A stretch of 29,720 nt of DNA from a virus (lineage: Duplodnaviria; Caudoviricetes). Made by a program: the position numbers and the translations under genes. Below the pieces are notes generated by a model. The model was given only the letters and a program-made list of their open reading frames with translations, was not told where the DNA came from and did no database searches. The stretch spans positions 1 through 29,720 of the IMG/VR virus record IMGVR_UViG_3300010052_000155; one strand, given 5' to 3'. This document shows, in pieces, positions 1-29,076 of the stretch (positions are counted from its first letter, which is position 1; each line of letters begins with the position of its first letter).

Positions 1-399
1 CTGCAGCGCCCCTCCGTAGACGACGGTTTTGTTGTTGTTGGAATCGAGGTGGAGGATTGGACCGGTTCCGGCTCCATCCTCCGTGTTGATGACGACGTCT
101 CCCTTGCTCTGCAGGATCGCCCGACCGTTCGCGGCGTCGTATGACAGATGAACGTCGTTGGGCGACGTGCCAACTGAGACACTTCCGCTCAGGACGATGC
201 TTGTCCCGTTGATAGTCCCGGTGAACGTGTCGCCGGCCTTCAGCGCGTACGCGGAAAGATCCGGTTCCGGAATGTCCGTCCATCCGGTCTGACCGGTTCC
301 GGCGTTCAGAAGGATCAGAGCCTGGTTGACCACGCCGACGGTGTTCGGCGCGATGAGCGGCCGGGCGTCGCCTGGCTCCATCCCTTGCATCGGCGTCAT
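1..399 (-). CDS. Tail-fibre/virion-appendage-like protein, N-terminal 133 aa (runs off the left edge of the window)
   Basis: Not in the ORF track; translated by hand from ATG at 399, which abuts the stop of the 400-624 gene: MTPMQGMEPGDARPLIAPNTVGVVNQALILLNAGTGQTGWTDIPEPDLSAYALKAGDTFTGTING... open to position 1. The Y-x-x-K-x-G-D-T-x-T-G motif is typical of phage tail fibres; Gly/Thr/Asn/Ser-rich. Confidence 0.65.
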   Translation of the reverse strand, partial: MTPMQGMEPGDARPLIAPNTVGVVNQALILLNAGTGQTGWTDIPEPDLSAYALKAGDTFTGTINGTSIVLSGSVSVGTSPNDVHLSYDAANGRAILQSKGDVVINTEDGAGTGPILHLDSNNNKTVVYGGALQ

Positions 400-624
400 C
401 TATCGGCCCCCGGCGACGTGAAGTTCGGGCGTCGGCGCCAGAGTCGGCTGCGGATCATCGCGGCCGAAAAGTTTGTCCTCGATTCGTTCGACCGATCGAT
501 CGATCCGGTCGACTCGAGTCACGACGCAACCCATTTGGAAGATGACATAGGCGGACGTCGACGCAGCGCCGCCAAAAGCGACCGCGGCTCCGACAATCGC
601 TTCTTTCGTCCAGCCTTTGAACAT
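400..624 (-). CDS. Small single-TM membrane protein with short coiled coil (holin/XhlA-like candidate)
   Basis: 74 aa; hydrophobic N-terminal segment (AIVGAAVAFGGAASTSAYVIF) followed by heptad-like VDRIDRSVERIEDKLF. Function inferred from shape only. Confidence 0.55.
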   Translation of the reverse strand: MFKGWTKEAIVGAAVAFGGAASTSAYVIFQMGCVVTRVDRIDRSVERIEDKLFGRDDPQPTLAPTPELHVAGGR

Positions 625-667
625 GGTTCGCAGACGCTACGCCGCCGGCGGAAATCCCGTCGACCGG

Positions 668-696
668 GGATAACCGCCGGGGAGTTTTCAGGCGGC
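668..696 (-). repeat. Left copy of 29-bp inverted repeat (partner 8066-8094)
   Basis: Minus strand GCCGCCTGAAAACTCCCCGGCGGTTATCC versus plus strand 8066-8094 GCCGCGTGAAAACTCCGCGGCGGTTATCC: 27/29 identical. Confidence 0.9.
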
Positions 697-972
697 CGGC
701 GCTTCCGGTTCCGCCGGCGGAACGAAATGCAACGTGCGGTCCGTCCGGAACTGGCCGCAATCGACGCACTCGACGCGGTGCATCACGATCAGGTTGAACG
801 GGCAATCGCCGTGAAACTGAATCGTCGGTTGCGGTAGCTCGGTCATTTTGTCGTGAACCTTTCGGCGCGTGGACTTGCAGGCGGGGCATCGCGAGGGGAT
901 CCCCAAGCCTTTCCCGTAGTCTCGATTCGGGCCGCGGACTTTCGGCGGTGCGGGTTTTGCGGGCCGGTTCAT
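688..972 (-). CDS. Zn-ribbon protein (CxxC...CxxC), Ogr/Delta-like late activator candidate
   Basis: True start is probably ATG 972, overlapping the terL stop (ATGA). 94 aa with CPAC and CVDC pairs. The 216-aa version in the ORF track is an over-extension into terL. Confidence 0.7.
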   Translation of the reverse strand: MNRPAKPAPPKVRGPNRDYGKGLGIPSRCPACKSTRRKVHDKMTELPQPTIQFHGDCPFNLIVMHRVECVDCGQFRTDRTLHFVPPAEPEAPAA

Positions 973-3263
973 AGGTAGGAAACCCTTTCGCGTTGGCGCT
1001 TCTTCGGCGCGTTGACGGATCCGCCTGGGGCGGCGAGTCGGACGCCGCACACTGAGGCGGCGACAGCAGCTCCGACGATGCAATCGAAATAGTGGTTTTG
1101 ACGGGCGGGGATCTTTCGCCACACGTCGACGCGGCGGTTCCCGGTGACTGGCTCCGGCAGTTCGCTCGTCAAATGCTCGGACAGGAAGTCGTGCCGATCC
1201 TTCGCGTCGACGCCGTAGAACGACAGCGATCCCGGATCCCCGCGGTCGGTGAGAAGCCGGCGGGCGGTGAAAGACTTCCAGTGGTAAGTATCGAAAATCA
1301 GGTGCATTCCGGACCGTGAACGGCCGCGGATCAGCCATTCGTCGGGGGAAATGTGTTCGCCTGGCTTCGCGCGGTAGGCGGAAATCGGAACCTGATTCGC
1401 GTCGCAGGTCCGGCCGAACGACGGCATGAGAACGGTTCGGTGTTTCGACTCACGAATCGCCCGCCGGACAACGGCCGAATTGAATCCGCAGTCGATCAGG
1501 CAGCGTGTGAGCCGGAGTTTGACGCCGTCCTCGCGCTCGTAATCGGCGTCCGCGAGCTGCTCGGATAACGCCTGCAGGCCGGCGTAAATCGCCCCGTCGG
1601 GGCCGCGGCTCGGATAGTTCTCCTGCAGGGTGGGCCGGAAGTTCTTCTCGGTGAAATGGGCCCGGGGCGATTTCGGGAACGTGCCGTAGTCGATGACGGT
1701 CCCGGTGAAGTCGGGTTCCCACGCGCAGAGCATCCAGTAAAGGACTTTTTGGTGGACGTCGATGAAGCCTGTGACGTGCTGCGTCCCCTGGGGGAGAATG
1801 AGACGCTTGAAGCCGGAGATTTTCCGGGACAGCTTCGCGGCCTCGAGCTGCAGGCCGTCGCCCTCGCCTGGGGGGAGTGGATCGTTGTTGTATTCCGTGG
1901 CGAACCCTTCCGGGCCCATCTGGAAAAACAGGTTCATCGCGTGTTGGACCGGGCCCAATTCGTCGGCGTCGAATCGGTGCGGGTTCCCGACGACGGCGCC
2001 ATCGTCCATCGCCTCGCGGTTCGCCTTATAGAATCGGGTCGCCCGCTTGTACGGTTCCTCGCAATCGTCGTTGCGCAGATCTTCGCGGACGATCTCGAAG
2101 TATTGCTCCCAAAGCTCGAGGGCGGCTTTCGAGGGGAACGTCGGGAGCATCTTGCCGCGGCGTGACTTCCATTCCGGGTGGCGGTTCTTGTCGAGCAAAC
2201 GGTCGGCGAGGTCGCCCGCTTCAATGACGGTGCAGGCGCAGAGGGCGGACATGCGTTTGCCCTGGGGAGCGCAACCGAGAAGGTCGGCGGTCAGGATCTT
2301 CTCGCGGGTGTTGGTCTGATCGGGGGACGCTGCGGACTCGCGGGTTTGCGGGTCGTCGATCAGAACAAGCGACGGCCGGAGAACCTTCCCGCCTTTCTGC
2401 AGGTGCTTGGCTCCGCGGGTGGCGCTCATCAGTCCGCAAGAGGCGATGATCGCTCCGCTCGAGGGCGAACCGGGGATCGTCGGCAGGATCAGTTTGCGGC
2501 GGGTGAACCGGATCGCGGTTCTCAGGCCGTTGACCGTCTGACCTTTCGCCCGGTTGTGGATCCCTCCAAGAGCGCGGATCGCAAAGCAGACTTCCGGGAA
2601 ATCTTCGTTGAGCCGCTCATTGGTCTCGAGCGTGGTCACGAGGTCGGCGAGCGCGTCGTTTCCCTTCTCGTCGGTCGCGTGAACCAGCATCGAAAACGCG
2701 TGGTATCCGTACAGGGTCGCCCACACGAGCGCCCGTTCGGCGCGGACGGACTTTCCGTCGCCGCGGGGCTCCGCGAACGCCTGCAGGCTCCCCTGCAAAA
2801 CGGTTGTCTGGATCCCCTTGATCTCGGCTTCCTGGTCGGGCGAGAACGGCCGGAAGAACACGTCGGGGAAATACTCGAGATAAAACGCCTTCAGGTCGCG
2901 CCGGCATCGCTCGCGGCGTTCCGGATTGACGACGGGAGGGACCGGGCCGATCTCGCGGGCGGCCGACGATTGTTTCCTCGAGCGGTCCGCCATCCGTTGA
3001 CGGTGGCGATCGCCGGCGTCGGCGGCTTTGACCTGGGCCGCGTTGTTTTGCGATCGGGCGCGAGCGGAAACGATCACGTCGCGCAGCGTGGCGAGCTGGG
3101 CTTTCGTGGCCGTCGCCTGCAGTCGTTCGATATCGAACCCGGTCCCTGCCCGTTCGGCCGCCTTCTCGAGCGCTTTAGTTTGCGCTGGGTTTGCGGCTTC
3201 GCGCAGTGCGGTCCAGAACGCGGAGAACGTCCGCGAAGGGGTCGCCCGTTTTGGTTTCGCCAT
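969..3263 (-). CDS. terL: Terminase large subunit (lambda GpA-type)
   Basis: 764 aa; Walker A-like AEPRGDGKS, Walker B-like LVLIDDPQT, nuclease motif GFIDVHQK, C-terminal NHYFDC motif typical of GpA-family terminases. Confidence 0.93.
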   Translation of the reverse strand: MAKPKRATPSRTFSAFWTALREAANPAQTKALEKAAERAGTGFDIERLQATATKAQLATLRDVIVSARARSQNNAAQVKAADAGDRHRQRMADRSRKQSSAAREIGPVPPVVNPERRERCRRDLKAFYLEYFPDVFFRPFSPDQEAEIKGIQTTVLQGSLQAFAEPRGDGKSVRAERALVWATLYGYHAFSMLVHATDEKGNDALADLVTTLETNERLNEDFPEVCFAIRALGGIHNRAKGQTVNGLRTAIRFTRRKLILPTIPGSPSSGAIIASCGLMSATRGAKHLQKGGKVLRPSLVLIDDPQTRESAASPDQTNTREKILTADLLGCAPQGKRMSALCACTVIEAGDLADRLLDKNRHPEWKSRRGKMLPTFPSKAALELWEQYFEIVREDLRNDDCEEPYKRATRFYKANREAMDDGAVVGNPHRFDADELGPVQHAMNLFFQMGPEGFATEYNNDPLPPGEGDGLQLEAAKLSRKISGFKRLILPQGTQHVTGFIDVHQKVLYWMLCAWEPDFTGTVIDYGTFPKSPRAHFTEKNFRPTLQENYPSRGPDGAIYAGLQALSEQLADADYEREDGVKLRLTRCLIDCGFNSAVVRRAIRESKHRTVLMPSFGRTCDANQVPISAYRAKPGEHISPDEWLIRGRSRSGMHLIFDTYHWKSFTARRLLTDRGDPGSLSFYGVDAKDRHDFLSEHLTSELPEPVTGNRRVDVWRKIPARQNHYFDCIVGAAVAASVCGVRLAAPGGSVNAPKKRQRERVSYL

Positions 3264-3561
3264 CCGTGGCGGTATCCAGTTCCGTCAGCAGCTTCCGAAT
3301 CAACGGAACAAGCTGCATCTGTGCGCGGAATTCCGGGGCGGGCTCCTGCTTTCGCAAGACTCCCTTGTCGTCCCGGATCTCGCTGATTTGCCCGTTTTTA
3401 TTGAGTGAGTCCGTCACGCGAACGAACTGCAGAAACAACTGCGCGGCCTGGGCCGCGGCTGACTCTCCGCGAAACTCTTTCGAGACCTCGAGGGTCTCGA
3501 CGATCGCATCCCAAAACGGCCGCGCGTCTTTCGTCAGCCAATCAGGGGGTTCCCGCTTCAT
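3175..3561 (-). CDS. terS: Terminase small subunit (P27-family-like)
   Basis: Start ATG 3561 (ATGA overlap with the upstream gene), 128 aa; PPDWL..DARPFW..IV..L N-terminus, L.KNG middle and PAPE...Q...IRKLLTEL C-terminus resemble P27/HK97-type TerS; directly upstream of terL. Confidence 0.75.
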   Translation of the reverse strand: MKREPPDWLTKDARPFWDAIVETLEVSKEFRGESAAAQAAQLFLQFVRVTDSLNKNGQISEIRDDKGVLRKQEPAPEFRAQMQLVPLIRKLLTELDTATDGETKTGDPFADVLRVLDRTARSRKPSAN

Positions 3562-3773
3562 GCCGGCGGCTGTAAGACCTTTTCCGCGGGCTCGTCTAGT
3601 CGATCTTCCGGCGGAAGTTCGTCGGCGAACTTTTTGAGGACATCGGCGACGACGTCTTTCAGGTGTCGCCGGCGGGCGGCGGCGTGGCGATCCAAACGGA
3701 GCATCGTCGCGATCGGGAGAGTGATCGTGTACGGCTTCCGGGTTTTTGGGGTGACTGCTGTTGACGGCTGCAT
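3558..3773 (-). CDS. Ribbon-helix-helix DNA-binding protein
   Basis: 71 aa from ATG 3773; beta strand KPYTITLP then helices IATMLRLDRHAAA and LKDVVADVLKKF, the CopG/Arc pattern; coupled to terS. Confidence 0.65.
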   Translation of the reverse strand: MQPSTAVTPKTRKPYTITLPIATMLRLDRHAAARRRHLKDVVADVLKKFADELPPEDRLDEPAEKVLQPPA

Positions 3774-3896
3774 GACCTTGGCGCTCCAGTGGGTTTCGCA
3801 TGACCGGGGGCCGGCAGGGATGCTGCCTCTACAAGCGGGCCCGCACGGATGGCAAACGGGAACGCCTGTCTTTTCACGCATGACGCGTGCCGCTGA

Positions 3897-4490
3897 ATGA
3901 ACCTCCAGGACGGGGATTTATTGGCCTGCTACGGCGGTGATCGCGCGGCTCGCGCAATCTCCGTTGTCACGGCGTCGGTTTTCGCGCCGCGTGGTCTGCG
4001 TCTCGGTCCCTCTCACGTCGGGATCGTTCTCGGTTCCTACCTCTACGAATCGACAACGCTTTGCGATGAGCCCTGCGTTGTGGCTGGCCGCCGCGTTTCC
4101 GGTGTGCAGGCCCACTATCCGAAATCGCGGATCGATTCCTACGTCAATGGTGGTGGCCGCGTCCAGACTTATCGTCTGACGGATCCTTGGCGGCTCTCGC
4201 CGGCGAGTTTGCGGCATTTGTGGGCGATCGTCGATGTGATGATCGCGCAGGGGACGCCTTACGACACGCCCGGGGCTGCTCTTTCGGGGGCTCGACTCTA
4301 TCAGCGGTCGCGGAAGTTTCCGGCGGCCGATTTCCGGCGGTTCTTCTGCTCTGAATTGGTCGCCTTGCTGCTGCAGGTGTCCGGCCGGCTCGACGTCGAG
4401 AATCCAACCCGGTTCAACCCGGGGAAGCTGTTGCGGCGGCTCGTGTCGACGGGTGTCTATCAGCTCGTGGGTGAAAGGGCTTCTCGATGA
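3897..4490 (+). CDS. Permuted papain-like (NlpC/P60, YiiX/YaeF, C92-like) amidase
   Basis: LQDGDLL N-terminus, SHVGI (catalytic His) before FFCSELV (catalytic Cys), GTPYD motif: the permuted NlpC/P60 order. Confidence 0.85.
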   Translation: MNLQDGDLLACYGGDRAARAISVVTASVFAPRGLRLGPSHVGIVLGSYLYESTTLCDEPCVVAGRRVSGVQAHYPKSRIDSYVNGGGRVQTYRLTDPWRLSPASLRHLWAIVDVMIAQGTPYDTPGAALSGARLYQRSRKFPAADFRRFFCSELVALLLQVSGRLDVENPTRFNPGKLLRRLVSTGVYQLVGERASR

Positions 4491-5683
4491 CGCCGTCTCT
4501 GAGTCGATTCCGCCGGCGGGCGGCTGATGAACTGATCATTTTCGCCGTGCTGGCGCTGGCTCTGACGCTCGCGAAAGGCGTCGTCTCCGTGGGTGGGAGC
4601 GTGTTCGCTGGCGACGGCCGGGTTTGCCTGGACGTCTGGTCGCCCGGCGACTGCATCCGATGCGAGGCGTTCGCCGATTGCTTGAAGCGGGATCCGCAGT
4701 TTCGGGCGGCGCTCGAGGCGAAATTCGTCGTCAACGGGCCGGTTTTGGTCGGCAAACATCATTCACACGCCCGGAACCGTGGCGTTCTCGAGGGGCCGTT
4801 TCCGGTGTTCGACCGGGGCCCACAATTCCCGCTCGTGTTCGGATTCGAGTCGCGCGAGAAACTGCTGATCGCCCTCGGCTGTATTCCGGGACGGAATATC
4901 GCACCGGTACCAGCTCCGGCGCCGTTGCCGCTGCCGCCGGCGGTGAATCTGGTACCAGAACAGTCCGGCGAGTTCGCAAAGCAGCTCGAGGCACTCCGGA
5001 AACGGCTCGATGAAGGGCTTTCCGAAACCGTCGACGCGACGCCGATTGTCGACGCGCTCGACAAGCGGGTCGGCGAGCGCCTGGCCGCCGGCTCGAAAGA
5101 CCAGCTCGAGCGGATCCTTGCCGAACTGCGGGCGTCTGAAACCCGGAATCGCGGCTCGGTCGGTTCCGTTCTCGAGAAGATCGAACGGATCGAACGGCTA
5201 CCGCCGGCGATCGTCTCGCTCGCGCCGCCGGCCAAAGTGCCGGCCGTGATCAAGCCGGAGGAACTGAGCGTCAAACTGTTCGGTTTCTCGCTTTCAATGG
5301 TTCAGTTCCTCGCCGGCATCGGTCTGACCGGCGCCGGCGGCGTGGGCGTTCCGCTCCTGGCCGCGAAGGCGATCGCGTTTTTGTGGCGACGCCGGCGGGA
5401 ACGGAAGGCGGCCGGCGGATCCTCGCCGACGGGATCTTCCGCGAACGCCGGCGACGTCCCTCGAGGGAAGGGCTACGGGATCCCGGTCGCGATCGACTCG
5501 CCGATCCCTGATCCGCTCGTGTTGACCGAAAAGCATTATCAGGCCGTGGAAGTCGACACGCACCGAAAGGCGTTCGATTGGGCCTGCGATGAAGTCGTCC
5601 GTAAACAGCCCGGGGCGGTCGACCTGCTCTCTCAACTCCGGGGATTGATCCAGCAAGCTCTGCCAGTGAAGGGGAAGAAATGA
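4487..5683 (+). CDS. Membrane protein with thioredoxin-like CxxC domain, Pro-rich linker, coiled coil and second TM segment
   Basis: 398 aa; N-terminal hydrophobic helix, VWSPGDCIRC followed later by PFPVF (cis-Pro-like), PAPAPLPLPP linker, C-terminal Gly-rich TM ending WRRRRERK; ATGA-coupled on both sides. Confidence 0.65.
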   Translation: MTPSLSRFRRRAADELIIFAVLALALTLAKGVVSVGGSVFAGDGRVCLDVWSPGDCIRCEAFADCLKRDPQFRAALEAKFVVNGPVLVGKHHSHARNRGVLEGPFPVFDRGPQFPLVFGFESREKLLIALGCIPGRNIAPVPAPAPLPLPPAVNLVPEQSGEFAKQLEALRKRLDEGLSETVDATPIVDALDKRVGERLAAGSKDQLERILAELRASETRNRGSVGSVLEKIERIERLPPAIVSLAPPAKVPAVIKPEELSVKLFGFSLSMVQFLAGIGLTGAGGVGVPLLAAKAIAFLWRRRRERKAAGGSSPTGSSANAGDVPRGKGYGIPVAIDSPIPDPLVLTEKHYQAVEVDTHRKAFDWACDEVVRKQPGAVDLLSQLRGLIQQALPVKGKK

Positions 5684-6492
5684 TTTCAGGCCACGACGCG
5701 TTCCTCCATTACAACGTGGGCGATTGGGAAAACTACGGGCTCGCCATCCCGAATTTCGGGAACGATCCCGACTCCCAAAACTCGACGGTTCGCTACCTCG
5801 TCGAAGTGACCGGCCGCAACCTGCAGGCCGTCATGTGGCAACCGGACGCGATGTTGCGATCGGTCCCGACGATCAACACGCTGACGCGCCTGCACAAGCT
5901 CTGCACGCGGGCCCGGTCGATCCTGTCTTCCCGGGCGGTTCCGCCTGGGAAACTGAACATGGAATCGGCACACGCCATTCCGGCCCGCGAGGACTTCCTC
6001 GTCTTCCCGGTTCCTTATTTCAAGGTGCGGAACGGCTGGCTGAAGGAATACGCCGGCCTTGTCCTGACCGGCCTCACGGATGCGATGCAGCATCAGGAGA
6101 ACGCGCGGCCGCTCGAGATTTCGACGGACTTCGCGTCGGCGTTCGGCCAGTATTTCCAGCGGATCTATATCCGGATGTGCGTCGAGCTGCTGCGGATTCC
6201 GCAGGCCGACGCGGAACAGCCCGATTTCACGCTCACTCAAGAGCAACTGTCGGCCTACAACCCGTCGCTCTACTTCACGTCGACCGAACTGATCGACACG
6301 GTTCCGCGCGAGTTTGATCGGCCGACGGAAGACGATCTCGAGGTTCTGACGAACGGAATCCCCTGCTCTGTGCTGCCGAAGCTCAACCGCTATCCGGCCG
6401 GGAATTCGATGGTCGGTTCGGCCTCGAGCGGCTCGACGGCCGTGAAGGCGGCCGGCGACGGAGCTCGGTTCTTCGCTCCCCCTGGCGTTTGA
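5680..6492 (+). CDS. Hypothetical protein (270 aa)
   Basis: Globular composition, SD-like AAGGGG, ATGA overlap with the upstream gene; no motif recognised. Confidence 0.75.
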   Translation: MISGHDAFLHYNVGDWENYGLAIPNFGNDPDSQNSTVRYLVEVTGRNLQAVMWQPDAMLRSVPTINTLTRLHKLCTRARSILSSRAVPPGKLNMESAHAIPAREDFLVFPVPYFKVRNGWLKEYAGLVLTGLTDAMQHQENARPLEISTDFASAFGQYFQRIYIRMCVELLRIPQADAEQPDFTLTQEQLSAYNPSLYFTSTELIDTVPREFDRPTEDDLEVLTNGIPCSVLPKLNRYPAGNSMVGSASSGSTAVKAAGDGARFFAPPGV

Positions 6493-6508
6493 TTTCTTCC
6501 CTGGGCGC

Positions 6509-6545
6509 GCCGCGGCGGCGAGGGCTACGTCGCCGCGGCTCTTTT
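6509..6545 (+). terminator. Intrinsic terminator-like hairpin
   Basis: GCCGCGGCGGCG-AGGGCTA-CGTCGCCGCGGC stem-loop followed by TCTTTT. Confidence 0.65.
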
Positions 6546-6553
6546 GATTCGAA

Positions 6554-6590
6554 CGCCGTCACGGATGACGGCGGCTCCTGCAGGATGCGG
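6554..6590 (+). promoter_or_regulatory. Tandem CsrA-type GGA hairpins over the SNase ribosome-binding site
   Basis: CGCCGTC-ACGGAT-GACGGCG (7-bp stem, ANGGAN loop) and CTGC-AGGAT-GCGG, the latter 5 nt before ATG 6596. Confidence 0.7.
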
Positions 6591-6595
6591 ATTCG

Positions 6596-6985
6596 ATGGT
6601 TCCTCAACCCGGCGTGTGTCTCGATGCGGTCGTCGTCGACGTGATCGACGGCGACACGGTCCGCGTCGAAGTGAAACGGACGTTCGACGTTCGTCTCCTC
6701 GATTGCTGGTGTCCGGAGTCGCGCACGAAAGACGACGCCGAAAAGGCTCGAGGGCTCGCCGCGAAAGAGCGGACGAAAGCCCTCGTCGGCGGTCGCCTTG
6801 TTCGGGTTCTGATTCCCGCCGGCGATCCGACTCGGCTCCTCGACGTCACGACGTTCGGCCGGGTTCTCGGCCGGATCTTCGTCGACGGGAAGAACCTCGC
6901 GCAGCAGCTCGTCAAAGAAGGGCTCGCCGCGGTCTCGAAAGAGGATCAGGCGGCGATCTTCGGAAAGGGTCGTTACGACAAATGA
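6596..6985 (+). CDS. Thermonuclease (SNase-like) family nuclease
   Basis: VVDVIDGDTVRV, VRLLDCWCPE and FGRVLGRIFVDGKNLAQQLVKEGLA motifs; no signal peptide. Confidence 0.92.
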   Translation: MVPQPGVCLDAVVVDVIDGDTVRVEVKRTFDVRLLDCWCPESRTKDDAEKARGLAAKERTKALVGGRLVRVLIPAGDPTRLLDVTTFGRVLGRIFVDGKNLAQQLVKEGLAAVSKEDQAAIFGKGRYDK

Positions 6986-7242
6986 TCAAGGTTTCTCCGT
7001 TCCGGACGTCGCGGGATATCGCCCGGTCGGCCGGCATCAACCGGATCGAAACGGTCGGCCAACAAATCGCCGTTGCGCAGCTCGTTTTGTTGAGCGCGAC
7101 GGCGCCGGCGATCGCTCGCCGGCAACTCTCCGCAGCGTTCGAAGGATCCGCGCAGCCGCGGACCGTCGATCGTGAGTGTCCCGGGTGCGGGGCCGCGGTC
7201 CCCGACGGCCGCCCTGGTCGTCGCTGTCAGTCCTGTCGATAG
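6982..7242 (+). CDS. Small protein with HTH-like N-terminus and C-terminal Zn ribbon
   Basis: ATG 6982 (ATGA overlap), 86 aa; SRDIARSAGINRIETVGQ (HTH-like), CPGC and CQSC. Confidence 0.6.
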   Translation: MIKVSPFRTSRDIARSAGINRIETVGQQIAVAQLVLLSATAPAIARRQLSAAFEGSAQPRTVDRECPGCGAAVPDGRPGRRCQSCR

Positions 7243-7250
7243 GGTCATCC

Positions 7251-7490
7251 GTGAAAGCTCGTCTCATTCGCTGGTTTCTGACGGCCGTTCATTACTTCAT
7301 CCGGGCTCGCCTCGAGCGGATCCTTTGCGAAGCGGCGGCCGACGGGATCATCACGAAAGGCGACGTCGCCGAATTGTCGAACCGCCTGGATCCCGCGTGC
7401 CGGGCTCCGCGGCTCGTGTTCCGCCGGCTCTCCCCGGAAGAACTTCGGGGCCTCTTGAACTTTCCGCCGAAGAAGTTGGGGCCAAAATGA
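7251..7490 (+). CDS. Hypothetical protein (79 aa)
   Basis: GTG 7251 lies 8 nt after the previous stop; its TGA overlaps the next ATG. Confidence 0.55.
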   Translation: MKARLIRWFLTAVHYFIRARLERILCEAAADGIITKGDVAELSNRLDPACRAPRLVFRRLSPEELRGLLNFPPKKLGPK

Positions 7491-8074
7491 GTTCGCCAGA
7501 TGACGCGGGGCCCATCGTCCCGCGTCCCGAATGTCGATTCCCTCGAGCGGTCGATTCCGATGCGCAGCTCTCCGACGCTGTCGCGTGGGTCGCCTGGGCT
7601 AATGCTGAGGCCGAAGCGATCGACGCCGACGCGGAAAGGCGTTGCCAGACCATCAAGGCGGCGGCGGCCCGGCGTATCGCAAAATTGCGATCGGCCCGGA
7701 TCGACAATGCGGGCCTCCAGATTGATCGCTACGTCGTCCGGAATCGCCGGCGGCTCCTGGCCGACGGGAAGACGCTACGTCTCGCCGGCGGCGTGGTGCA
7801 GGTCCGCAGGGGCAACGAAGCGGTGGCGATCGTCGGCAAGGAATCGGAATCCGAAGTCGTCGACCGCATCGCGCAGGCAACGGGGGCCGATCGTGCGATT
7901 GCTGAAGCCCTCGAGGGCGCCGGCGCGGCGACCTGGCTCCGGGTGTCGCTGGCGCTCAATCGGGAACGAATCAAACGCGACGTGGGAAACGGTGTGATCG
8001 ACTCAAGCGCCCTCGCTACGCATCGACTGAAAATCGAGCGGCCCGAATCGATCCGCGTTTCCCGCGCCGCGTGA
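7487..8074 (+). CDS. gam: Mu Gam-like host-nuclease inhibitor (Ku-related DNA end-binding protein)
   Basis: ATG 7487, 195 aa; N-terminal coiled coil, Y...NR..LL.DGKTLRLAGGVVQVR (K-S/T-x-x-L-x-x-G-x-V-x-x-R of Gam) and LNRERIK near the C-terminus. Confidence 0.7.
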   Translation: MSSPDDAGPIVPRPECRFPRAVDSDAQLSDAVAWVAWANAEAEAIDADAERRCQTIKAAAARRIAKLRSARIDNAGLQIDRYVVRNRRRLLADGKTLRLAGGVVQVRRGNEAVAIVGKESESEVVDRIAQATGADRAIAEALEGAGAATWLRVSLALNRERIKRDVGNGVIDSSALATHRLKIERPESIRVSRAA

Positions 8075-8094
8075 AAACTCCGCGGCGGTTATCC
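8066..8094 (+). repeat. Right copy of 29-bp inverted repeat (partner 668-696)
   Basis: 27/29 identity to the minus-strand copy; includes the gam stop codon; internal dyad CGCCGCG-TGAAAACTC-CGCGGCG. Confidence 0.9.
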
Positions 8095-8136
8095 GGCGTC
8101 GGCTCGAGGCGGGCCGCTCCGTAGTCTCCGCGAATC

Positions 8137-8340
8137 ATGGCCGCCCAAACGCTCGACGAACGCATCGCCGAAATCGAATCGCAGATCGATTCAGGCGTGA
8201 CGACGTTCACCGCGGACGGCGTCACGACGACGGTCGATCTCGAGTTTCTCAAGTCGCGGTTGTCGGAACTGAAGGCGGAAAAGGCGGGCAGAACGGACCG
8301 GGCTCCGTTCGTCTCTCTGAACCTGGGCAGCGCTTGGTAA
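8137..8340 (+). CDS. Head-tail joining protein (lambda gpW-like)
   Basis: 67 aa helix-hairpin-helix pattern (IAEIESQIDSG-VTTFTADGVTTTVDL-EFLKSRLSEL), directly before the portal. Confidence 0.75.
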   Translation: MAAQTLDERIAEIESQIDSGVTTFTADGVTTTVDLEFLKSRLSELKAEKAGRTDRAPFVSLNLGSAW

Positions 8341-9767
8341 TGGCGACGCGGAAAATGACGCCGACGGCGAAACGTCGGTCGAAAGCAGCGGGGGCCAGTG
8401 GCTCGCGCGCTCTCGGCTATGACGCCGCCGAAACGTCGAAGCGTCGCAAAGCGCCTTGTTCGACGATCACGTCCGAAGATGCCGTCGTCACGTCGAAGAA
8501 ACGCGACACGCTCGTCGGCGGGGCTCGCGATGTCGCCCGCAATTTCGCAATCGCCGCGTGGGCCATCCGGCGACACCTGGATTACGTCGTCTCACACAAG
8601 CTGCACTGCCGCACGGGCAATGCGGAGTTCGACGTCGAGTTCCAGAAATGGTTCGTCCGGATCACGTCGGCGGACGTGTTCGACGTGGCCGGCCGGCATC
8701 CGTTCGACCGCTATTTGCGGCTGATGGAAGCCGCGAAAGTCGTCGGCGGCGACCTGGGGAACCTGTTCCTTCAGACCGGTCATTTGCAGGCGATCGAAAG
8801 CGATCTGATCCGGGATCCGGAAGACAAGCGGGACGACACGATTCACGGCGTCCGGACGGACATCGCCGGGCGTGCAATCGCCTATCACGTTCGGCCGCGG
8901 GGCCGGAACGGCAAGGGCTACGGCGACGGGCGATGGATCCCGGCCGATAGCTTCTTTCTGCACGCGCAATTTGACCGCTTCGATCAATACCGCGGCATCG
9001 CTCCGATCGTGTCGGGCCTGAACAGCCTGCGCGACCTCTACGAAGGGTTCGACTATGGGCTCGCGAAGCTGAAAGTCGAGCAGCTCTTTTGCATGGCGAT
9101 CTTCCGTAAGGAAGGCGTCGAGCTGCCTGGAACAGAGACGGAAAGCGCGGAGCGCGGCAAATACAAGGTCGACATGGGGAACGGTCCGGTTCTCCTCGAC
9201 CTGGATCCTGGCGACGACGCCAAGTTCCTTAAGAGCGATTCGCCTGGGGCCAATACCCGGGAGTTCCTCGCGGCTGTGGCGATGGTGGCGCTCAAGGCGC
9301 TCGACATCCCTTACAGCTTTTTCGATGAGTCGTTCACCAACTTCTATGGCTCGGTGGGAGCGTGGCGGCATTACGACCGCTCTTGCGTCAGCAAACGCAG
9401 CGACATTCAGGCGTTTCTCAATTGGTGGATGGTCAAGCGGGTTGCCCTGGGGATCGTCCGCGGAGAGCTGCGGATTCCGGCCGGTCTCACGCTCGCAAAT
9501 CCGTGGTGGGAGTTCGTCCCGTCGGGCATGCCGTGGTGGGATCCCTCGAAAGAAATCAACGCGGATCTCCAACGGGTGATGGCCGGTTGGGGCACTCCGC
9601 AGCAAATCGCGAAGGAACGCGGCGTCGGCGATTGGTTCCAGAACATTGAAGAAACGGGCCGGGCCCTCGAGTTCGCGAGAACGAAAGGCGTTTCCGTCTC
9701 ATTCGCTCCGCAGGCTCCGGCCGCGCCGGATCCGGTCGACGATCAGCAGAAGGAAGAGAAGCCGTGA
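8340..9767 (+). CDS. Portal protein, lambda family
   Basis: GYDAA...RR N-terminus, ARDVARN, R.DQYRGI.P and W.DP.KE..A motifs of lambda gpB-type portals. Confidence 0.92.
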   Translation: MATRKMTPTAKRRSKAAGASGSRALGYDAAETSKRRKAPCSTITSEDAVVTSKKRDTLVGGARDVARNFAIAAWAIRRHLDYVVSHKLHCRTGNAEFDVEFQKWFVRITSADVFDVAGRHPFDRYLRLMEAAKVVGGDLGNLFLQTGHLQAIESDLIRDPEDKRDDTIHGVRTDIAGRAIAYHVRPRGRNGKGYGDGRWIPADSFFLHAQFDRFDQYRGIAPIVSGLNSLRDLYEGFDYGLAKLKVEQLFCMAIFRKEGVELPGTETESAERGKYKVDMGNGPVLLDLDPGDDAKFLKSDSPGANTREFLAAVAMVALKALDIPYSFFDESFTNFYGSVGAWRHYDRSCVSKRSDIQAFLNWWMVKRVALGIVRGELRIPAGLTLANPWWEFVPSGMPWWDPSKEINADLQRVMAGWGTPQQIAKERGVGDWFQNIEETGRALEFARTKGVSVSFAPQAPAAPDPVDDQQKEEKP

Positions 9768-21490: not shown

Positions 21491-21661
21491 TCAGGAAATC
21501 GGTTCGTATTTGACGATGGAAAATTCAGGGCAACGGCAGTGCGGGCATGGGTGGACGATCGGTTTCGTCCTGGTCCGCCGGCATCGGTTGCACTCGATTT
21601 CGGCGACCGTGTAGGCGGGGTCGTCGAGTTTCGAGACGGGCTTTTTCGGCTTCGGTTTCAT
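21491..21661 (-). CDS. 56-aa Zn-ribbon mini-protein
   Basis: Below the ORF-track cut-off; hand translation MKPKPKKPVSKLDDPAYTVAEIECNRCRRTRTKPIVHPCPHCRCPEFSIVKYEPIS with CNRC and CPHC. Confidence 0.65.
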   Translation of the reverse strand: MKPKPKKPVSKLDDPAYTVAEIECNRCRRTRTKPIVHPCPHCRCPEFSIVKYEPIS

Positions 21662-21675
21662 GAGTGGGTAACGGT

Positions 21676-22064
21676 TGATTCCCCTGCGGTTCAGCGACGA
21701 TTCCCGCCTGTTGGATCGCCGCCATAGTCGAGCGCGTCGACATAGTCGTCGTCGAAGTCATCGTCATTGACCTCAACTTCGACCTCTTCTCCGACGCCGG
21801 CGCTGTAGACGTAGGTCATTTCCGCCTCGACGGTGAAACGCTGGGTTGAGTACCCGAGCGGATCGACGACGAACACGATGCGGCTCTGAACGAAGTCGCC
21901 TTCAGCGTTCGCATCGCTGGCGTACCTCTCTGCCGCCTCTTCGTGGTCCGTCGCCCGGATGGTTACGGCGTCGTCGCGGCCTCGGCCGCAGTCGTCCCAA
22001 CAGATGTACTCCAGCGGCATGGTGGTTCCTCCGGTGTGTAAGTAATGAGTGATTCCCCTGCGGT
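21676..22064. repeat. 15-bp exact direct repeat TGATTCCCCTGCGGT (21676-21690 and 22050-22064)
   Basis: Each copy abuts the stop codon of a minus-strand gene; together they flank 21691-22020. Confidence 0.85.
21691..22020 (-). CDS. Acidic hypothetical protein (109 aa)
   Basis: SD GGAGG; A.D.EEAA..Y motif common in small phage early proteins; Asp-rich tail. Confidence 0.75.
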   Translation of the reverse strand: MPLEYICWDDCGRGRDDAVTIRATDHEEAAERYASDANAEGDFVQSRIVFVVDPLGYSTQRFTVEAEMTYVYSAGVGEEVEVEVNDDDFDDDYVDALDYGGDPTGGNRR

Positions 22065-22270
22065 CAGACGGCTTCGACGGACTTCAGCGTGAAGCCACGG
22101 ACCGGCAGCAGGTTCTCGCGCTGCGCTTCGTCCCAATGGCGGCGGACTTCGGCTTCGTCTTTCGCCTCGACCGTCCAGTGACGGGTTCCGTAGGGCATGT
22201 TCGGCAGGTTTGGGTGGAAGATCCGGTCGAGAGGAACCGGGTTCTCAGCGGTGACTTTGAACTGCGGCAT
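22064..22270 (-). CDS. Hypothetical protein (68 aa)
   Basis: SD GAGG before ATG 22270; VEAKDEAEV motif. Confidence 0.7.
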   Translation of the reverse strand: MPQFKVTAENPVPLDRIFHPNLPNMPYGTRHWTVEAKDEAEVRRHWDEAQRENLLPVRGFTLKSVEAV

Positions 22271-22315
22271 GGTTCGCCTCATGGTTGATGGGGTAATTGC
22301 GTGTTCCCCGGCCGC

Positions 22316-22576
22316 TCACGGTGCGTCCGGCCATACGTCGCGCTTGTGGCGCAACAGCATCTGGATCATCCGATCGACGGCCGCCGGCGATTTGAGACGC
22401 ATGACGATGTCGTGTTGATGGCTGGCGGGACGGATCGAAATGGCGACGGCCGTTGCCGGGCCCGTCCCGTCGGGCGTTGGACACCAGCTTCCGACCGTGA
22501 ATGACTCGATATCGGGGCCATAGAGCGGAGTGCCGCCCCTCGTTGACGGTGGCAGCCTCTTGCGATTCTGACTCAC
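22316..22576 (-). CDS. Hypothetical protein (86 aa)
   Basis: GTG 22576 overlaps the upstream stop (GTGA); globular C-terminal part of the 147-aa track ORF. Confidence 0.6.
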   Translation of the reverse strand: MSQNRKRLPPSTRGGTPLYGPDIESFTVGSWCPTPDGTGPATAVAISIRPASHQHDIVMRLKSPAAVDRMIQMLLRHKRDVWPDAP

Positions 22577-22890
22577 GATTCGTGCGTCCTTTCGAGGGCC
22601 TTCAGGGCTTTCCGCAGCAGGTCGACGCACTCTCCATGGTCGCCGCGGAACACGAGGTAATTCAGCGGGGACGGCGTATCGCCGCCGCCGATACTGATTC
22701 GCAAAATGCCGTGTTCGTCCGGTGGAAGCTGGCGGACGTAGACGCCGTTCCATTTCCACTGGTCGAGGATCTGCTCGTCTGGCTTCCCTGCGGTGATTTG
22801 AGACTCTCCGGCCGCCTGCATCTTCTCGGCCTTGTCCTCAAGCGACTTGATCCAAGGGCGGTACGCGTCTCGGTCTCTGTGGGTCTGCAT
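22573..22890 (-). CDS. Hypothetical protein (105 aa)
   Basis: SD AGGAGG; globular composition. Confidence 0.7.
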   Translation of the reverse strand: MQTHRDRDAYRPWIKSLEDKAEKMQAAGESQITAGKPDEQILDQWKWNGVYVRQLPPDEHGILRISIGGGDTPSPLNYLVFRGDHGECVDLLRKALKALERTHES

Positions 22891-22933
22891 AGTCTTCCTC
22901 CTGATGGTTGGGTAATGGTTCGTTCCCCGCCGA

Positions 22934-23137
22934 TCATGGTTTGATCAGCGGTTCGAGGTTGCTTTCGTCGGTGTGAAGGATCCCGGCGACGGAATCGACC
23001 GGGAATTCGGCAACGCGTTTCCCGTTCTTGTCGTTCACGTTGAGCCAGACGGGCGAGCCGTTCGGGTGGTCAATGCGTTCGAAGGTCGCGGCTTCACTCA
23101 GGACGGCGACGGCGCCGCATTTCAGGACTATCTGCAT
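22934..23137 (-). CDS. Hypothetical protein (67 aa, beta-rich)
   Basis: ATG 23137 with GGAG SD, overlapping the end of the initiator gene. Confidence 0.6.
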   Translation of the reverse strand: MQIVLKCGAVAVLSEAATFERIDHPNGSPVWLNVNDKNGKRVAEFPVDSVAGILHTDESNLEPLIKP

Positions 23138-24162
23138 CGGTTCGGGTCTCCCTCGAGGGCCGCCAGCAATCGCCGCCGCAACACGCGGCCGATTCCATGC
23201 CGGCGAAAGCGTTTGAGCTCCAACGGCTCCAAGGTCCGCCGGGCGAGCGCCTCGAGGGCGTCCGCCGGCATTGCGTCCAGTTCTCTCCCGAAACTTCGCT
23301 CCAGACGCTCCAGCTCCGCGGCTGACGCGTTCCGGGCCTTCTCCGCGTCCTCGGCCTCGGCCGCTCTCCTGGCGGCCTCCTGTGCGTTCTGTGCGGCGAT
23401 TTGGGCCGACACGGACCGGGCGGGCCATCCACGATCGACCGGAAGGTCCGGCCGTGCGTTCTGAAGCCTTCGGACCAGCGCCCCGGGGCCCCATCCGTTC
23501 GGCGGGCCCTGGGTGCGGAAATAATCGATCAGCTCGAGGATGGTCCCTTCGCTGATCGTGGCTCGAGCCGCGGCAAGGGCTGCCGTCGGCCATTCAATCC
23601 CGATCGAAACAAGAACCGCCGCCGCCTCGTCGGATTTGGGCCCGGCGGGTTTGGGGGTAGGGGGTGGCGGTTCTTTTTGCGCTTCTTGAAGAGGACAGGT
23701 TTCCACTCGTGGCGGGTGGGGTCTGCTCTCGTGGCGGCTGGCAACCGCCATGGTGGCGGGTGGGGTCTCCCTCTTTGGCGGCTGTGGATCCGCGAAATCG
23801 GAAAGGCTTTCGAGATTGCTCCAGACGATCCAGCGGTGAAAAACCCGCCTGGGCCGCCGGCGCCCGTCGGAATCGAGTTCCTCTTCCTCCTCAACGATCG
23901 CGAGAACGTCGCGCAGGACGGCGATCGCCCGTTCGGCGACGCGCTCGCTGCAGCTTGCTCTCTGAGCGATGAGGGCGATTGAAGCGAAACAGGTTCCGCC
24001 CTGGCGGGCGAAACCGTCGATCACGCGGAGAACGCCTTTCAGGACGACACCGGAAACCGACGAGCCGCGTTCGGCCCGGTAGGACCGGGCGAAAACGGCG
24101 TCGTCGATCAAACGGAGCTGCGTCCCCCGCGTGAAATTGAGGGTCTGTTGTCGAGCATCCAT
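23128..24162 (-). CDS. Replication initiator (winged-HTH, lambda O-like organisation)
   Basis: CFASIALIAQRASCSERVAERAIAVL is the typical HTH_36-like motif; Pro-rich central linker carrying iterons. Confidence 0.75.
   Translation of the reverse strand: MDARQQTLNFTRGTQLRLIDDAVFARSYRAERGSSVSGVVLKGVLRVIDGFARQGGTCFASIALIAQRASCSERVAERAIAVLRDVLAIVEEEEELDSDGRRRPRRVFHRWIVWSNLESLSDFADPQPPKRETPPATMAVASRHESRPHPPRVETCPLQEAQKEPPPPTPKPAGPKSDEAAAVLVSIGIEWPTAALAAARATISEGTILELIDYFRTQGPPNGWGPGALVRRLQNARPDLPVDRGWPARSVSAQIAAQNAQEAARRAAEAEDAEKARNASAAELERLERSFGRELDAMPADALEALARRTLEPLELKRFRRHGIGRVLRRRLLAALEGDPNRCR
23706..23793. repeat. Four 22-bp-period iterons (putative replication origin)
   Basis: Core (G/T)TGGCGG(G/C)TG at 23709, 23731, 23753 and 23775; GTGGCGGGTGGGGTCT exact at 23709 and 23753; T-rich patch at 23671-23690. 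Confidence 0.75.
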
Positions 24163-24174
24163 GCGAAGCTCGCG

Positions 24175-24402
24175 TCATGCGGCCGGCGTGGGTGTGACCG
24201 GCAACGTCGGTCGCGGTTCCCTGGGCTCCTTCTTCGTGGCCTCGGGTCTCTCGATGGCGAAAGACGGCGGGGCGGCAATCCCAAGCCTCGCCGCGCTCTT
24301 ACCCACCCTGATCATGTCGATATTGATGATGGTCCCGGCGGGGATCGCCTCTTTCGCAATGATCTGGGTTCGCTCGCCCTTCTCACGTTTCAAAACAAGC
24401 AT
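24175..24402 (-). CDS. csrA: Carbon storage regulator CsrA/RsmA-family RNA-binding protein
   Basis: 75 aa from ATG 24402 (SD GGAGG): MLVLKREKGER...ARLGIAAPPSFAIERPE matches MLxLxRxxGE...VRxGIxAPxxVxxxRxE, keeping the R44-equivalent Arg. Confidence 0.85.
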   Translation of the reverse strand: MLVLKREKGERTQIIAKEAIPAGTIINIDMIRVGKSAARLGIAAPPSFAIERPEATKKEPREPRPTLPVTPTPAA

Positions 24403-24499
24403 CTTGCATGACCTCCATGGAACACGCCGCCGGCGGCTCGGCCGCGGCAACGTGGGAGTTTCAGAGCGCTCCGCGCCCGTCAAGGTTCCTTCCTCAGAC

Positions 24500-25303
24500 T
24501 CACGGCGTTCCGAAAAATATCGGAATGCCGGTCACGTTCTTGGCGAGCAGCTCGGCCAGCGAATCGAGGGATCCCTCGATTGCTTTGTCCAGGTCGTTCC
24601 GCGACGGGATCAGGGTGAACGTCACCCGCTGCGGATCGATCTCGAGCGCGGTCCGGACGGGGAACGTCTGGATCAGCGCCCGATCGTTGATGGGCCGAAT
24701 ATCGAGAGTCAGTTGCTCGGGAATCTTGGTGATGTCAGACGTGATCTGACTGTCGACCTCAGTCCCGATCGACTCGCGGCCTCGCTGCATTTCGACGCGC
24801 GTGTCCGATGAGGACGTCGCGCGAAGGGATGACAGCGCTTCGATCAGCCGGTCGCGAACGTCCATGGCGAGACAATCGCGAAGCGTTGTCCGTAGGACGC
24901 GGACGAACCGTTTCGGATCGAACGCCTTGTCATCGTCCGCCAGTCCGGTCAGGAACGAAAACTCGCGGGTCGGCCGAAACGCGACTTTCGCGCGATGTCG
25001 ACGGGAGTCGTCCTTTCCGTCGTCGAGGACGATCTCGACGCCGTTCCCGTTGAACCACACGGACGGATTAAAACCTCCGTCGGTGGATGACTTCAGGAAC
25101 GTCGCGAGCTGGTCGACACTCAGCAGCGACGGGCTCAAGGTCGGGGACGGCAGGATAATTTCCTCCCGCTCTCCCTCTGCGGAAACAAGCCATCGTTTCC
25201 GCGGCTCGCCGGGGATCTCCAGTAGATGAACCTTGTTGTTGGCTCCGGCGGCCATGACAGCAAGGTTTTTGATCTTGTCGATCGCTTCTGCCAGGAAGCT
25301 CAT
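24500..25303 (-). CDS. YfdQ / DUF2303-like protein
   Basis: 267 aa; L.SVDQL..F, V..VLDD, RA...F..T.EF, F...LR and IPE.LTL.I.P pattern; paired with an upstream ~120-aa gene like yfdP-yfdQ. Confidence 0.6.
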   Translation of the reverse strand: MSFLAEAIDKIKNLAVMAAGANNKVHLLEIPGEPRKRWLVSAEGEREEIILPSPTLSPSLLSVDQLATFLKSSTDGGFNPSVWFNGNGVEIVLDDGKDDSRRHRAKVAFRPTREFSFLTGLADDDKAFDPKRFVRVLRTTLRDCLAMDVRDRLIEALSSLRATSSSDTRVEMQRGRESIGTEVDSQITSDITKIPEQLTLDIRPINDRALIQTFPVRTALEIDPQRVTFTLIPSRNDLDKAIEGSLDSLAELLAKNVTGIPIFFGTP

Positions 25304-25674
25304 AGTTCGTCGTCATCCTCTCTTTCTTCCTCGCCGCCGAACGGCAGCGGGGCCTGATCAAGTTTGTCCGGAAAGTCCGAGTTGAACTTGAAGCCGGCTT
25401 TGCCGACTCGCATTTCGTATTTCCGGCTCTTGTAGGTGGGGACCGATGATTTGCACTCGATGCGGACGTCGGCCCGCTCGAGGATCTGCTCGTCGTCATC
25501 CGGCGCGGGCGTGATCGTGAATTCGAGTTTCACTTTCCGCGCCCCCTTCTCGAACGGCCGGGCAACGCAGTCCGCCGCCGATCGTTCAAGATGGAACTTC
25601 AACAGGTTGTTCAACTTTCCTTTGTCGAGGTTCGCCAGATTGCTGAAGTCCAAAAGCACTTCGTTCGTGGGCAT
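25300..25674 (-). CDS. YfdP-like protein
   Basis: 124 aa; L..LD.G.L.......L......C...P....RKV.LEF.I.P...V....KS..P pattern; ATGA-coupled to the DUF2303-like gene. Confidence 0.55.
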   Translation of the reverse strand: MPTNEVLLDFSNLANLDKGKLNNLLKFHLERSAADCVARPFEKGARKVKLEFTITPAPDDDEQILERADVRIECKSSVPTYKSRKYEMRVGKAGFKFNSDFPDKLDQAPLPFGGEEEREDDDEL

Positions 25675-25740
25675 CCTCCTTCGTCCTCCTGGTCCGGCGG
25701 TGACTCCAGTCGTCCGCCGGCGTTCTGAATGCCGCGGCTC

Positions 25741-26325
25741 TCAGCCGTGGCGGGAATACGCGGCCTTCTCATTTGAGAACGGCGCGTAGTTTTGCCGGTG
25801 TTCGGGTTCGATGTACGGGACGCCGATCGCTTCGAAATACGATCGTTCCGTCGGCGTGGGGATCGGCTCGCCGTTCTTCCAAAGCTGGCCGCCGGCGACC
25901 TTGAATCCCCTGGGCATTTTTCCGCCCTGGTCGACCGTCGACGCCATTTCCCGGGAAAAGTCTTCGGGGCCGGTTCGAATCAAAAGCATCAACCCGGGCG
26001 ACGCCGGCGGCATGACGATAAACAGGTCGATCGGCAGGCCGTTCATCACGAACCGCTTATAGCGCGGTCCGTTGCGGCGGGTTTGCTGGTCATACTTGAA
26101 CTTGTCGCCGACGATCGCTTTCAACCTGGGCTCGAGGAGCGATCGTTGCTCACCGTTGTCGAATAAGGCGTCGGCCGGCGCGAGTTTCGGAATGCAAACG
26201 ATCTCCGCGTCGCTCACGGTCGGCTTTCGCCGGCGGATCGATCCGGCGATCCGGACGGATTCGCAGGCGTCCGCGATGTGCGCGGCGAACCGGACGGCGA
26301 TCGATTCGGCGTCGTACAGGTTCAT
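25741..26325 (-). CDS. Minimal family-X DNA polymerase (palm + thumb only)
   Basis: 194 aa from ATG 26325; IAGSIRRRKPTVSDAEIV, PIDLF, LIRTGPEDF and TERSYFEAIGVPYIEPEHR are hallmark PolX motifs. Confidence 0.88.
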   Translation of the reverse strand: MNLYDAESIAVRFAAHIADACESVRIAGSIRRRKPTVSDAEIVCIPKLAPADALFDNGEQRSLLEPRLKAIVGDKFKYDQQTRRNGPRYKRFVMNGLPIDLFIVMPPASPGLMLLIRTGPEDFSREMASTVDQGGKMPRGFKVAGGQLWKNGEPIPTPTERSYFEAIGVPYIEPEHRQNYAPFSNEKAAYSRHG

Positions 26326-26989: not shown

Positions 26990-26992
26990 GGC

Positions 26993-27325: not shown

Positions 27326-27340
27326 CGGTGGGCCCTCATC

Positions 27341-27394: not shown

Positions 27395-27415
27395 ACATCA
27401 CGATTGCCTCAGCGT

Positions 27416-29069: not shown

Positions 29070-29076
29070 AAAATTT

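Follow-up and report, generated by a model that had tools for sequence, protein, structure and literature searches.

The stretch of viral DNA analyzed here, a virus record of 29,720 bases with 63% G+C (IMGVR_UViG_3300010052_000155, in the following called the window), carries its terminase genes in a 7.4-kb segment between two 29-base inverted repeats. We consider it probable that two copies of a predicted phage late promoter recombined long ago and inverted the DNA between them, and that the resulting layout is now fixed; it is shared with a divergent prophage locus (L003). The genes of the large and the small terminase subunit (terL, terS) are located on the minus strand, portal and capsid genes on the plus strand. 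An earlier note on this DNA, made from the sequence alone, had pointed out that terS and terL point away from the head genes, which is borne out by family matches, and had offered two explanations: an active packaging/lysis switch operated by the window's tyrosine recombinase, or a fixed past inversion between duplicated promoters. The latter is supported by the same layout in L003 and by direct pairs of the repeat in other relatives. The former is not supported, in view of a single orientation in two studies and in L003, a dyad present in one repeat copy only, and the direct pairs in relatives of canonical gene order. Among the labels given in the note terS, terL, SNase, Gam and portal were recovered by family match, whereas amidase, holin-like, RHH (ribbon-helix-helix), gpW and fibre have no family match above the cut-off and are used here as positional or pattern names only.

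Inverted repeats and gene order in the window

If positions 668-696 are compared with the reverse complement of 8066-8094, 27 out of 29 bases match, as the earlier note had stated. It ranks first among the window's inverted repeats. None of 60 order-3 Markov simulations attained its score of 23 (simulated maximum 21), and no additional copy in the window is better than 19/29. The longest exact run common to both repeats comprises 12 nucleotides (nt). Each repeat contains the TGA stop of the segment's terminal gene, at 688-690 on the minus strand for the Zn-ribbon open reading frame (ORF) and at 8072-8074 for the Gam-domain ORF, again in agreement with the note. Its dyad-spacer-dyad shape (CGCCGCG-9-CGCGGCG) is perfect in the right copy (7/7) but reduced to 4/7 in the left one, and five perfect 7-9-7 dyads are found in the whole window; on these grounds the dyad was ruled out as a recombinase site. 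The distance from repeat to ATG is 42-43 nt for both copies, and similarity picks up again right before the ATG. The 13-nt spacer matches at 12 out of 13 positions within the window, but at only 2-4 out of 13 between the window and L003, and the identical cores of the window repeats and of the L003 repeats lie in different registers.

According to the gene order, flipping the segment would yield terS-terL-Zn-gpW-portal on a single strand. The two neighbourhoods created by the flip, gam next to the small hydrophobic gene and Zn next to gpW, both occur in relatives, and the synteny argument of the note is sustained to this extent. Its further claim, that the flip restores the canonical order, holds for these two neighbourhoods but not for the amidase block, which would be left opposite to terL. 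In relatives this block and terL are co-directional: out of 42 loci with terL and the conserved gene g5680, 40 have both in the same direction, the exceptions being the window and L003, and none shows the flipped state.

Gene order in relatives

L003 (identity to the window 69% for terL, 52% for terS and 57% for the amidase-like protein) has the same layout as the window: one strand reads portal-gpW-gam-SNase-g5680-membrane-amidase, and the opposite strand reads terS-terL-Zn-small hydrophobic gene-accessory genes. The structural proteins of both are 40-69% identical. It is the closest relative among the matches listed and a prophage in a Planctomyces sp. assembly, from which we take a planctomycete host to be likely for the window as well. 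Its exact terL is recorded on a contig of 79,860 bases, and the window therefore probably represents a prophage excerpted from the contig of a host.

terL occurs together with a head, neck or tail gene in 186 out of 444 sequences (the window and 443 loci). In 184 of these the genes are co-directional, and the window and L003 are again the exceptions; both this count and that of the 42 loci refer to partly redundant loci, not to independent genomes. The canonical order on one strand is amidase-membrane-g5680-(SNase, gam)-small hydrophobic gene-(accessory genes)-terS-terL-Zn-gpW-portal. The small hydrophobic gene directly follows gam in L205, L207, L224 and L226, and in L226 an RHH-like gene is divergent from the amidase gene. 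A quick terL tree of 40 rows placed the window and L003 in one clade (100) with the canonical L226 as sister (96), within a canonical group (97). Viral scans with terL, portal, capsid and g5680, made to find the flipped state or further genomes belonging to the inverted lineage, returned, among the matches listed, only L003, and so did a genome scan, a metagenome scan and searches of 398 genomes. The genome with the next-best terL among the matches listed (G036) has canonical order; a further terL (P0003) is 52% identical. The inverted terminase layout is a real, rare and most likely fixed rearrangement at the level of a lineage.

Two other observations concern gene order. The amidase-membrane-g5680-SNase block (3897-6985) is a mobile module; in many relatives (L193-L273) it is flanked by the neck genes and the major tail gene and does not precede terL. 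The early region (21691-29720; L330) converges on the tail genes in the window and in the L003 prophage, not in canonical relatives, and represents a further lineage-level inversion.

Paired elements before two late genes

Each repeat forms the upstream half of an element composed of a dyad, a gap, TAG..T and ATG. This element occurs as a pair, with one copy preceding the small hydrophobic gene and the other gpW. At the four homologous junctions of the window and L003 the element reads GA(A/T)A-N13-T(A/T)TCC-N27/28-TAG..T, followed by 6-9 nt to the ATG. This strict composite motif occurs nowhere beyond these four junctions in the loci scanned with it. A looser motif, applied to about 5 million bases, additionally matched two copies in L358 and five scattered sites, and a motif scan of viral contigs gave no match. 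L003 has its own short inverted match at both equivalent junctions, made up of other letters.

Four canonical relatives carry the pair as direct repeats. L358 has two copies 4.5 kb apart, before gpW and before a hydrophobic gene of 90 amino acids (aa), and in L349, L351, L352 and L358 alike the gpW element is repeated in the same direction at a distance of 4.5-6.6 kb upstream, where it precedes a small hydrophobic gene. The best 29-nt identities of these pairs are 26 (L349), 26 (L351), 29 (L352) and 28 (L358); the letters of the L349 pair differ from the GA(A/T)A-N13-T(A/T)TCC type. Altogether 5 out of 73 distinct gpW-upstream sequences have a partner matching in at least 24 out of 26 positions, inverted in the window and direct in the four loci mentioned. 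A recombinase acting on the direct pairs would delete terL; near-identity of the two copies is therefore a family trait and no sign of an invertase. As an aside, a single genome carries both L349 and L350 (G376:C1:191300-247400), prophage head modules that are nearly identical and separated by about 36 kb.

A palindrome (at least 8 out of 10 pairs) was found before gpW in 25 out of 58 dereplicated loci, compared to a mean of 6.7 and a maximum of 12 in shuffles, and many of these palindromes are centred 50-55 nt ahead of the ATG. In the window, L003, L351, L352 and L358 the TAG..T hexamer follows the dyad at near-constant spacing. Position, dyad and a hexamer spaced as for near-leaderless transcripts in these five genomes lead us to infer that the repeats may act as part of late promoters.

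A Zn-ribbon protein as candidate regulator

A hint towards the regulator arises from the comparison of close relatives. L351, L352 and L358 are 80-86% identical in DNA over the region, and their dyads differ between the genomes and are the same in both copies within each. Between L351 and L352 the Zn-ribbon protein encoded next to terL is identical at 41 out of 86 positions, compared to 632/698 for terL, 59/61 for gpW and 383/404 for portal; between L351 and L358 the values are 73/86 for the Zn protein and 681/698 for terL. The L358 capsid is also divergent (165/313 to L351), and fast change is not peculiar to the Zn protein. In this comparison Zn protein and dyads diverge fast together, which hints at an activator-operator pair. 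The dyad position near -52 would fit an activator better than a repressor.

The Zn protein was ruled out as a member of the Ogr/Delta family, which 0 out of 36 members of its own family matched at an expectation value (E) of 0.01; one member matches PF22811 (E 7e-5). The structural model has a predicted local distance difference test score (pLDDT) of 78.6. Its top fold match in both searches was the Zn ribbon of NrdR, with a Foldseek E of 0.36 and a VIA Z of 4.0 at a root-mean-square deviation of 2.6 and 45 aligned positions, that is, a weak match. Searches of PDB sequences, of the Atlas and of folds with the Zn protein returned weak leads only and no Ogr-type structure.

Proposed course of the rearrangement

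According to the explanation that we favor, the two 29-base repeats would be the activator-binding halves of two late-promoter copies, P1 before the small hydrophobic gene and P2 before gpW. The ancestor would have carried on one strand the early genes, the amidase-to-gam block, P1, the small transmembrane (TM) gene with the accessory genes, terS-terL-Zn, P2, and gpW with the head genes. An inversion of the block from amidase to accessory genes would have brought P1 into inverted orientation relative to P2, and a subsequent crossover between P1 and P2 would have yielded the present gene order. Such a crossover could have been tolerated because each downstream operon retains its own -10 box outside of the segment and gains an equivalent dyad; with each operon keeping its own hexamer the change would presumably have been near-neutral. 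The adjacent Zn-ribbon protein might bind the dyads and thereby activate near-leaderless late transcripts.

An enumeration with four blocks gave the flipped state as the sole intermediate of a two-inversion path. In a five-block model, which includes the oppositely pointing early block, the path takes three inversions and has the flipped state as one of two possible last predecessors. The flipped state is a possible intermediate, seen in no locus. Both changed neighbourhoods coincide with the repeats, and both breakpoints lie within the predicted promoter copies, whether the order arose by inversion or through the excised circle considered below.

Several points weigh against this explanation. 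In L003 an ungapped comparison of the two copies gives no more than 20/29 identical positions. Just the 5 out of 73 gpW-upstream sequences have a close partner, though many loci are short, and since three of the four loci with direct pairs are close relatives, these amount to about two independent cases. The family-wide -10 test was not significant (9 out of 58 loci, shuffle mean 5.4, maximum 10), and a sigma-70 scan of 400-8400 found no promoter-like site, so that promoter function is putative. The fold match of the Zn protein is weak (Z 4.0). The inverted lineage consists of two genomes only in the data searched, and the predicted intermediate was seen in no locus. Finally, contigs drop rare variants, and the evidence of the following section therefore excludes frequent flipping only.

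Orientation in contigs and alternative explanations

Sequencing evidence was available as contigs of two runs (X1, X2) from two studies, X2 possibly being the source of the window. In X2 one contig covers 70-973 at a depth of 15.9 and another one extends from 953 to past 12000 at a depth of 18, each with no differing letter, and at a depth of 16-18 there is no strand-changing joint or branch at the left or the right repeat. In X1 a contig over 7893-8184 spans the right repeat in window orientation at a depth of 3.8, with neither joints nor loose ends. The right repeat is thereby crossed by contigs of both studies and the left repeat by one, and an alternative joint is seen in none. The two X2 contigs break, with an overlap of 21 nt, at 953-973, where the terL stop and the Zn start are located. 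That misassembly be excluded by spanning reads had been called for in the earlier note, and the bridging contigs keep the window orientation. The window does derive from an assembly, possibly from X2 itself, but the exact run of 12 nt is below the assembly word size, independent contigs bridge the repeats, and the independently assembled L003 has the identical order. A misassembly at the repeat was thus ruled out and retains practically no probability.

The same contigs leave very little likelihood for an active site-specific packaging/lysis switch that, like the systems run by Gin in Mu and Cin in P1, would have its own recombinase, here the tyrosine recombinase of the window. In its favor are the inverted repeats at ORF-safe positions and the presence of a tyrosine recombinase in the window. 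Apart from the uniform orientation at both repeats, however, the proposed dyad exists in one copy only, and the registers of the identical cores in window and L003 differ. The recombinase is encoded 19 kb away, adjoining a helix-turn-helix (HTH) gene; it has no match in the L003 genome at E 0.001, and compared directly to the enzyme at the syntenic place in L003 it is 29% identical over 106 aa. The most plausible role for it is that of the integrase. Other recombinase families were not matched by any of the 51 window ORFs scanned. A slim chance may be given to rare flipping, which would persist through homology-driven recombination of the promoter copies without a dedicated invertase, so that the sampled genomes represent the majority state. 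In its favor, all ORFs stay intact after the flip, rare variants are lost from contigs, the repeats are 27/29 identical, and the spacer matches within the window but not between the window and L003. Yet copies match equally well within genomes that carry direct pairs, in which exchange would delete terL, the exact run does not exceed 12 nt, and orientation is constant in two genomes and two studies. A similarly slim chance applies to its functional form, a packaging-gene inverton with the operators of a fast-diverging Zn-ribbon activator as recombination sites, in which the 7.4-kb segment would flip too rarely to appear in contigs and would switch, within one prophage, which late operon is read through from the terminase arm.

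A different route to a fixed layout, which we regard as unlikely, leads through a circle. Recombination between direct repeats would have excised the small TM gene, the accessory genes, terS, terL and Zn, and the circle, opened before terS, would have re-entered in reversed orientation. Direct pairs bound exactly such a block in L349, L351, L352 and L358, and by our reasoning this block, circularly permuted, gives the minus-strand order of the window (ter, Zn, P, TM gene, fibre). The absence of the flipped intermediate from all 42 informative loci would be explained, as it would never have existed, and circles from repeated regulatory cassettes are reported for T4-type promoter-early stem-loop elements (PeSLs; PMC2839356). 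This route requires, on the other hand, an intermediate without terminase plus an illegitimate re-entry, and it accounts less simply for the RHH-like gene, which is divergent from the amidase gene in L226 and now leads terS. Very improbable in our opinion is a fixed layout in which the repeats are no promoters but RNA hairpins, processing or termination signals, or packaging sites. In its favor, the perfect palindromes of many relatives retain their symmetry although the letters vary, and across the family the -10 test did not reach significance. The window dyad is imperfect, however, a terminator scan found no site at either repeat, copies within a genome share letters that a structure-only element would not need, and the TAG..T spacing is near-constant in the five genomes named above.

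Features of the window and further observations

Table 1. Position of genes and predicted elements discussed in the text (window coordinates).
Feature	Position	Strand	Remarks
Putative fibre/accessory structural gene, start, truncated at window end	1-399	-	No family match; L003 has a beta-helix protein (PF13229) here
74-aa protein, single hydrophobic stretch ('holin-like' is a pattern label)	400-624	-	No Pfam/PHROG match; similar small genes after gam in canonical relatives
TAGCGT, -10-like hexamer (putative function)	634-639	-	28 nt past dyad, 9 nt ahead of ATG at 624; beyond inverted segment
Left repeat copy	668-696	-	Predicted late promoter, upstream half, for 400-624 gene; L003 has motif at homologous place
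Imperfect dyad GA(A/T)A-N13-T(A/T)TCC, left copy	690-668	-	
94-aa Zn-ribbon protein, CX2C-X36-CX2C, basic N-terminus	688-972	-	Candidate dyad binder
Terminase large subunit, lambda gpA type (terL)	969-3263	-	PF20454 E 3e-17; phrog_38, phrog_15
Terminase small subunit, start codon inferred (terS)	3175-3561	-	phrog_83 E 2e-4; 52% identity to L003 counterpart
Small RHH-like gene, start inferred, divergent from amidase-like gene	3558-3773	-	Pattern label; no Pfam match
Permuted papain-like amidase-like gene	3897-4490	+	PF05708 E 0.066, below cut-off; 57% identity to L003
Membrane-like gene	4487-5683	+	
g5680, conserved 270-aa unknown gene	5680-6492	+	287 homologs; no family annotation
SNase-family nuclease	6596-6985	+	PF00565 E 4e-9
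ORF with Mu Gam-like domain, true start likely further downstream	7172-8074	+	PF07352 E 5e-10, phrog_491; stop within right repeat
Right repeat copy	8066-8094	+	Predicted late promoter, upstream half, for gpW-portal-head; contig-bridged in X1 and X2
Dyad, right copy	8072-8094	+	
TAGTCT, -10-like hexamer (putative function)	8122-8127	+	27 nt past dyad, 9 nt ahead of ATG at 8137; beyond inverted segment
gpW-like 67-aa gene (positional label) and lambda-type portal	8137-9767	+	Portal PF05136 E 2e-33; gpW-like homologs ahead of relatives' portal
Tyrosine recombinase, early region, likely prophage integrase	27416-28480	-	phrog_1 integrase, PF02899; outside inverted segment

The genes and elements are compiled in Table 1. 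The L003 counterpart of the RHH-like gene is 35% identical over 48 aa to the divergent gene upstream of the amidase gene in canonical L226, and g5680 was found in 38 out of 398 genomes of the L003 host's family. In L344 (G153:C26) about 13 kb separate the portal from the protease match, which suggests a large insertion in the head operon.

At the left end of the window (1-288) an X2 contig of 1,170 nt with a depth of 31, about double, spans 1-99. Another contig, 13 kb long, agrees with 70-288 except for 15 differences and diverges beyond this stretch; many identical variant letters are also present in X1. A second copy of the downstream part of the fibre-like gene is present in the host sample, which may stem from a second prophage or a shared fibre C-terminal module. 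In the early region four copies of a GGGGAA...ATTAC... element (minus strand; 21655-21700, 22029-22074, 22278-22323, 22899-22944) lie right upstream of small genes and are possibly a repeated leader or an early regulatory cassette. Three repeats at 22-nt spacing (23709-23784) within a replication-initiator-like gene resemble origin iterons. The window also codes for a phage-borne CsrA-like regulator (24175-24483) and, at 25741-26364, for a protein that contains the thumb domain of DNA polymerase beta.

Comparison with known systems

If the old inversion is the correct explanation, the window offers a clear example of genome rearrangement in a phage by way of late promoters that are duplicated in the same genome, a mechanism which as such is not new. 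A lambda-type terminase module could then persist while split from its head operon, which is unusual (2 out of 186 loci). In planctomycete prophages, pairs of palindromic elements appear to precede late operons, and between close relatives their letters change in parallel with the small Zn-ribbon protein encoded next to terL. Should this protein be the late activator, it would belong to a non-Ogr family of zinc activators whose specificity shifts quickly; little work has been done on the phages of this phylum. In a literature search, which covered few subscription papers, neither an invertible terminase block nor the planctomycete paired elements or their Zn protein were described.

A precedent for a split packaging module is found in P2, where the terL and portal genes (P and Q) point away from the capsid genes. 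The late operons of P2 have a dyad with the consensus TGT-N12-ACA and are activated by Ogr, a small zinc protein with four cysteines, and in the P2-like phage Smp131 two such late promoters overlap in opposite directions (PMC3931495). The likeness consists of a dyad upstream of several late operons, two copies of which are present in the window, L003, L351, L352, L358 and L349. The consensus here is GA(A/T)A-N13-T(A/T)TCC and not TGT-N12-ACA, however, and the cysteines are arranged as CX2C-X36-CX2C, compared to CX2CX22CX4C in Ogr. In addition, the head module is of lambda type and the dyad letters turn over fast among close relatives. With NrdR the Zn protein shares the N-terminal Zn ribbon as top fold match, but this match is weak and in the range of common folds, and the 94-aa protein has no ATP-cone.

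Multi-kilobase invertible segments with inverted repeats of about 30 bp are known from Mu (G segment, Gin) and P1 (C segment, Cin). The window segment resembles these, and invertons as defined in PMC13501310, in its size and in its repeats of about 30 bp. It differs in having, within the window, a distant and poorly conserved tyrosine recombinase but no invertase adjacent to the segment, in showing no second orientation, in containing terminase genes instead of variable fibre ends, and in relatives that carry the pair before the same two genes as direct repeats; a recombinase site with arms plus core is not conserved in both copies. PeSLs of T4-type phages are repeated promoter cassettes that serve as recombination points and reshuffle the genome (PMC2839356). 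Many such cassettes, each an early promoter plus terminator, surround non-essential genes there, and the outcomes are mini-circles, deletions and swaps; the main text of the paper does not use the word 'inversion'. A repeated regulatory element at rearrangement breakpoints is also present in the window, but with no sigma-70-like site and no terminator-like site at the repeats, and as two predicted late promoters around essential terminase genes. By these comparisons the system of the window does not qualify as an Ogr system, a PeSL or an inverton. It likely works in the way of the late control of P2, with a dyad and a zinc activator, and it was likely rearranged as PeSL-bearing genomes are.

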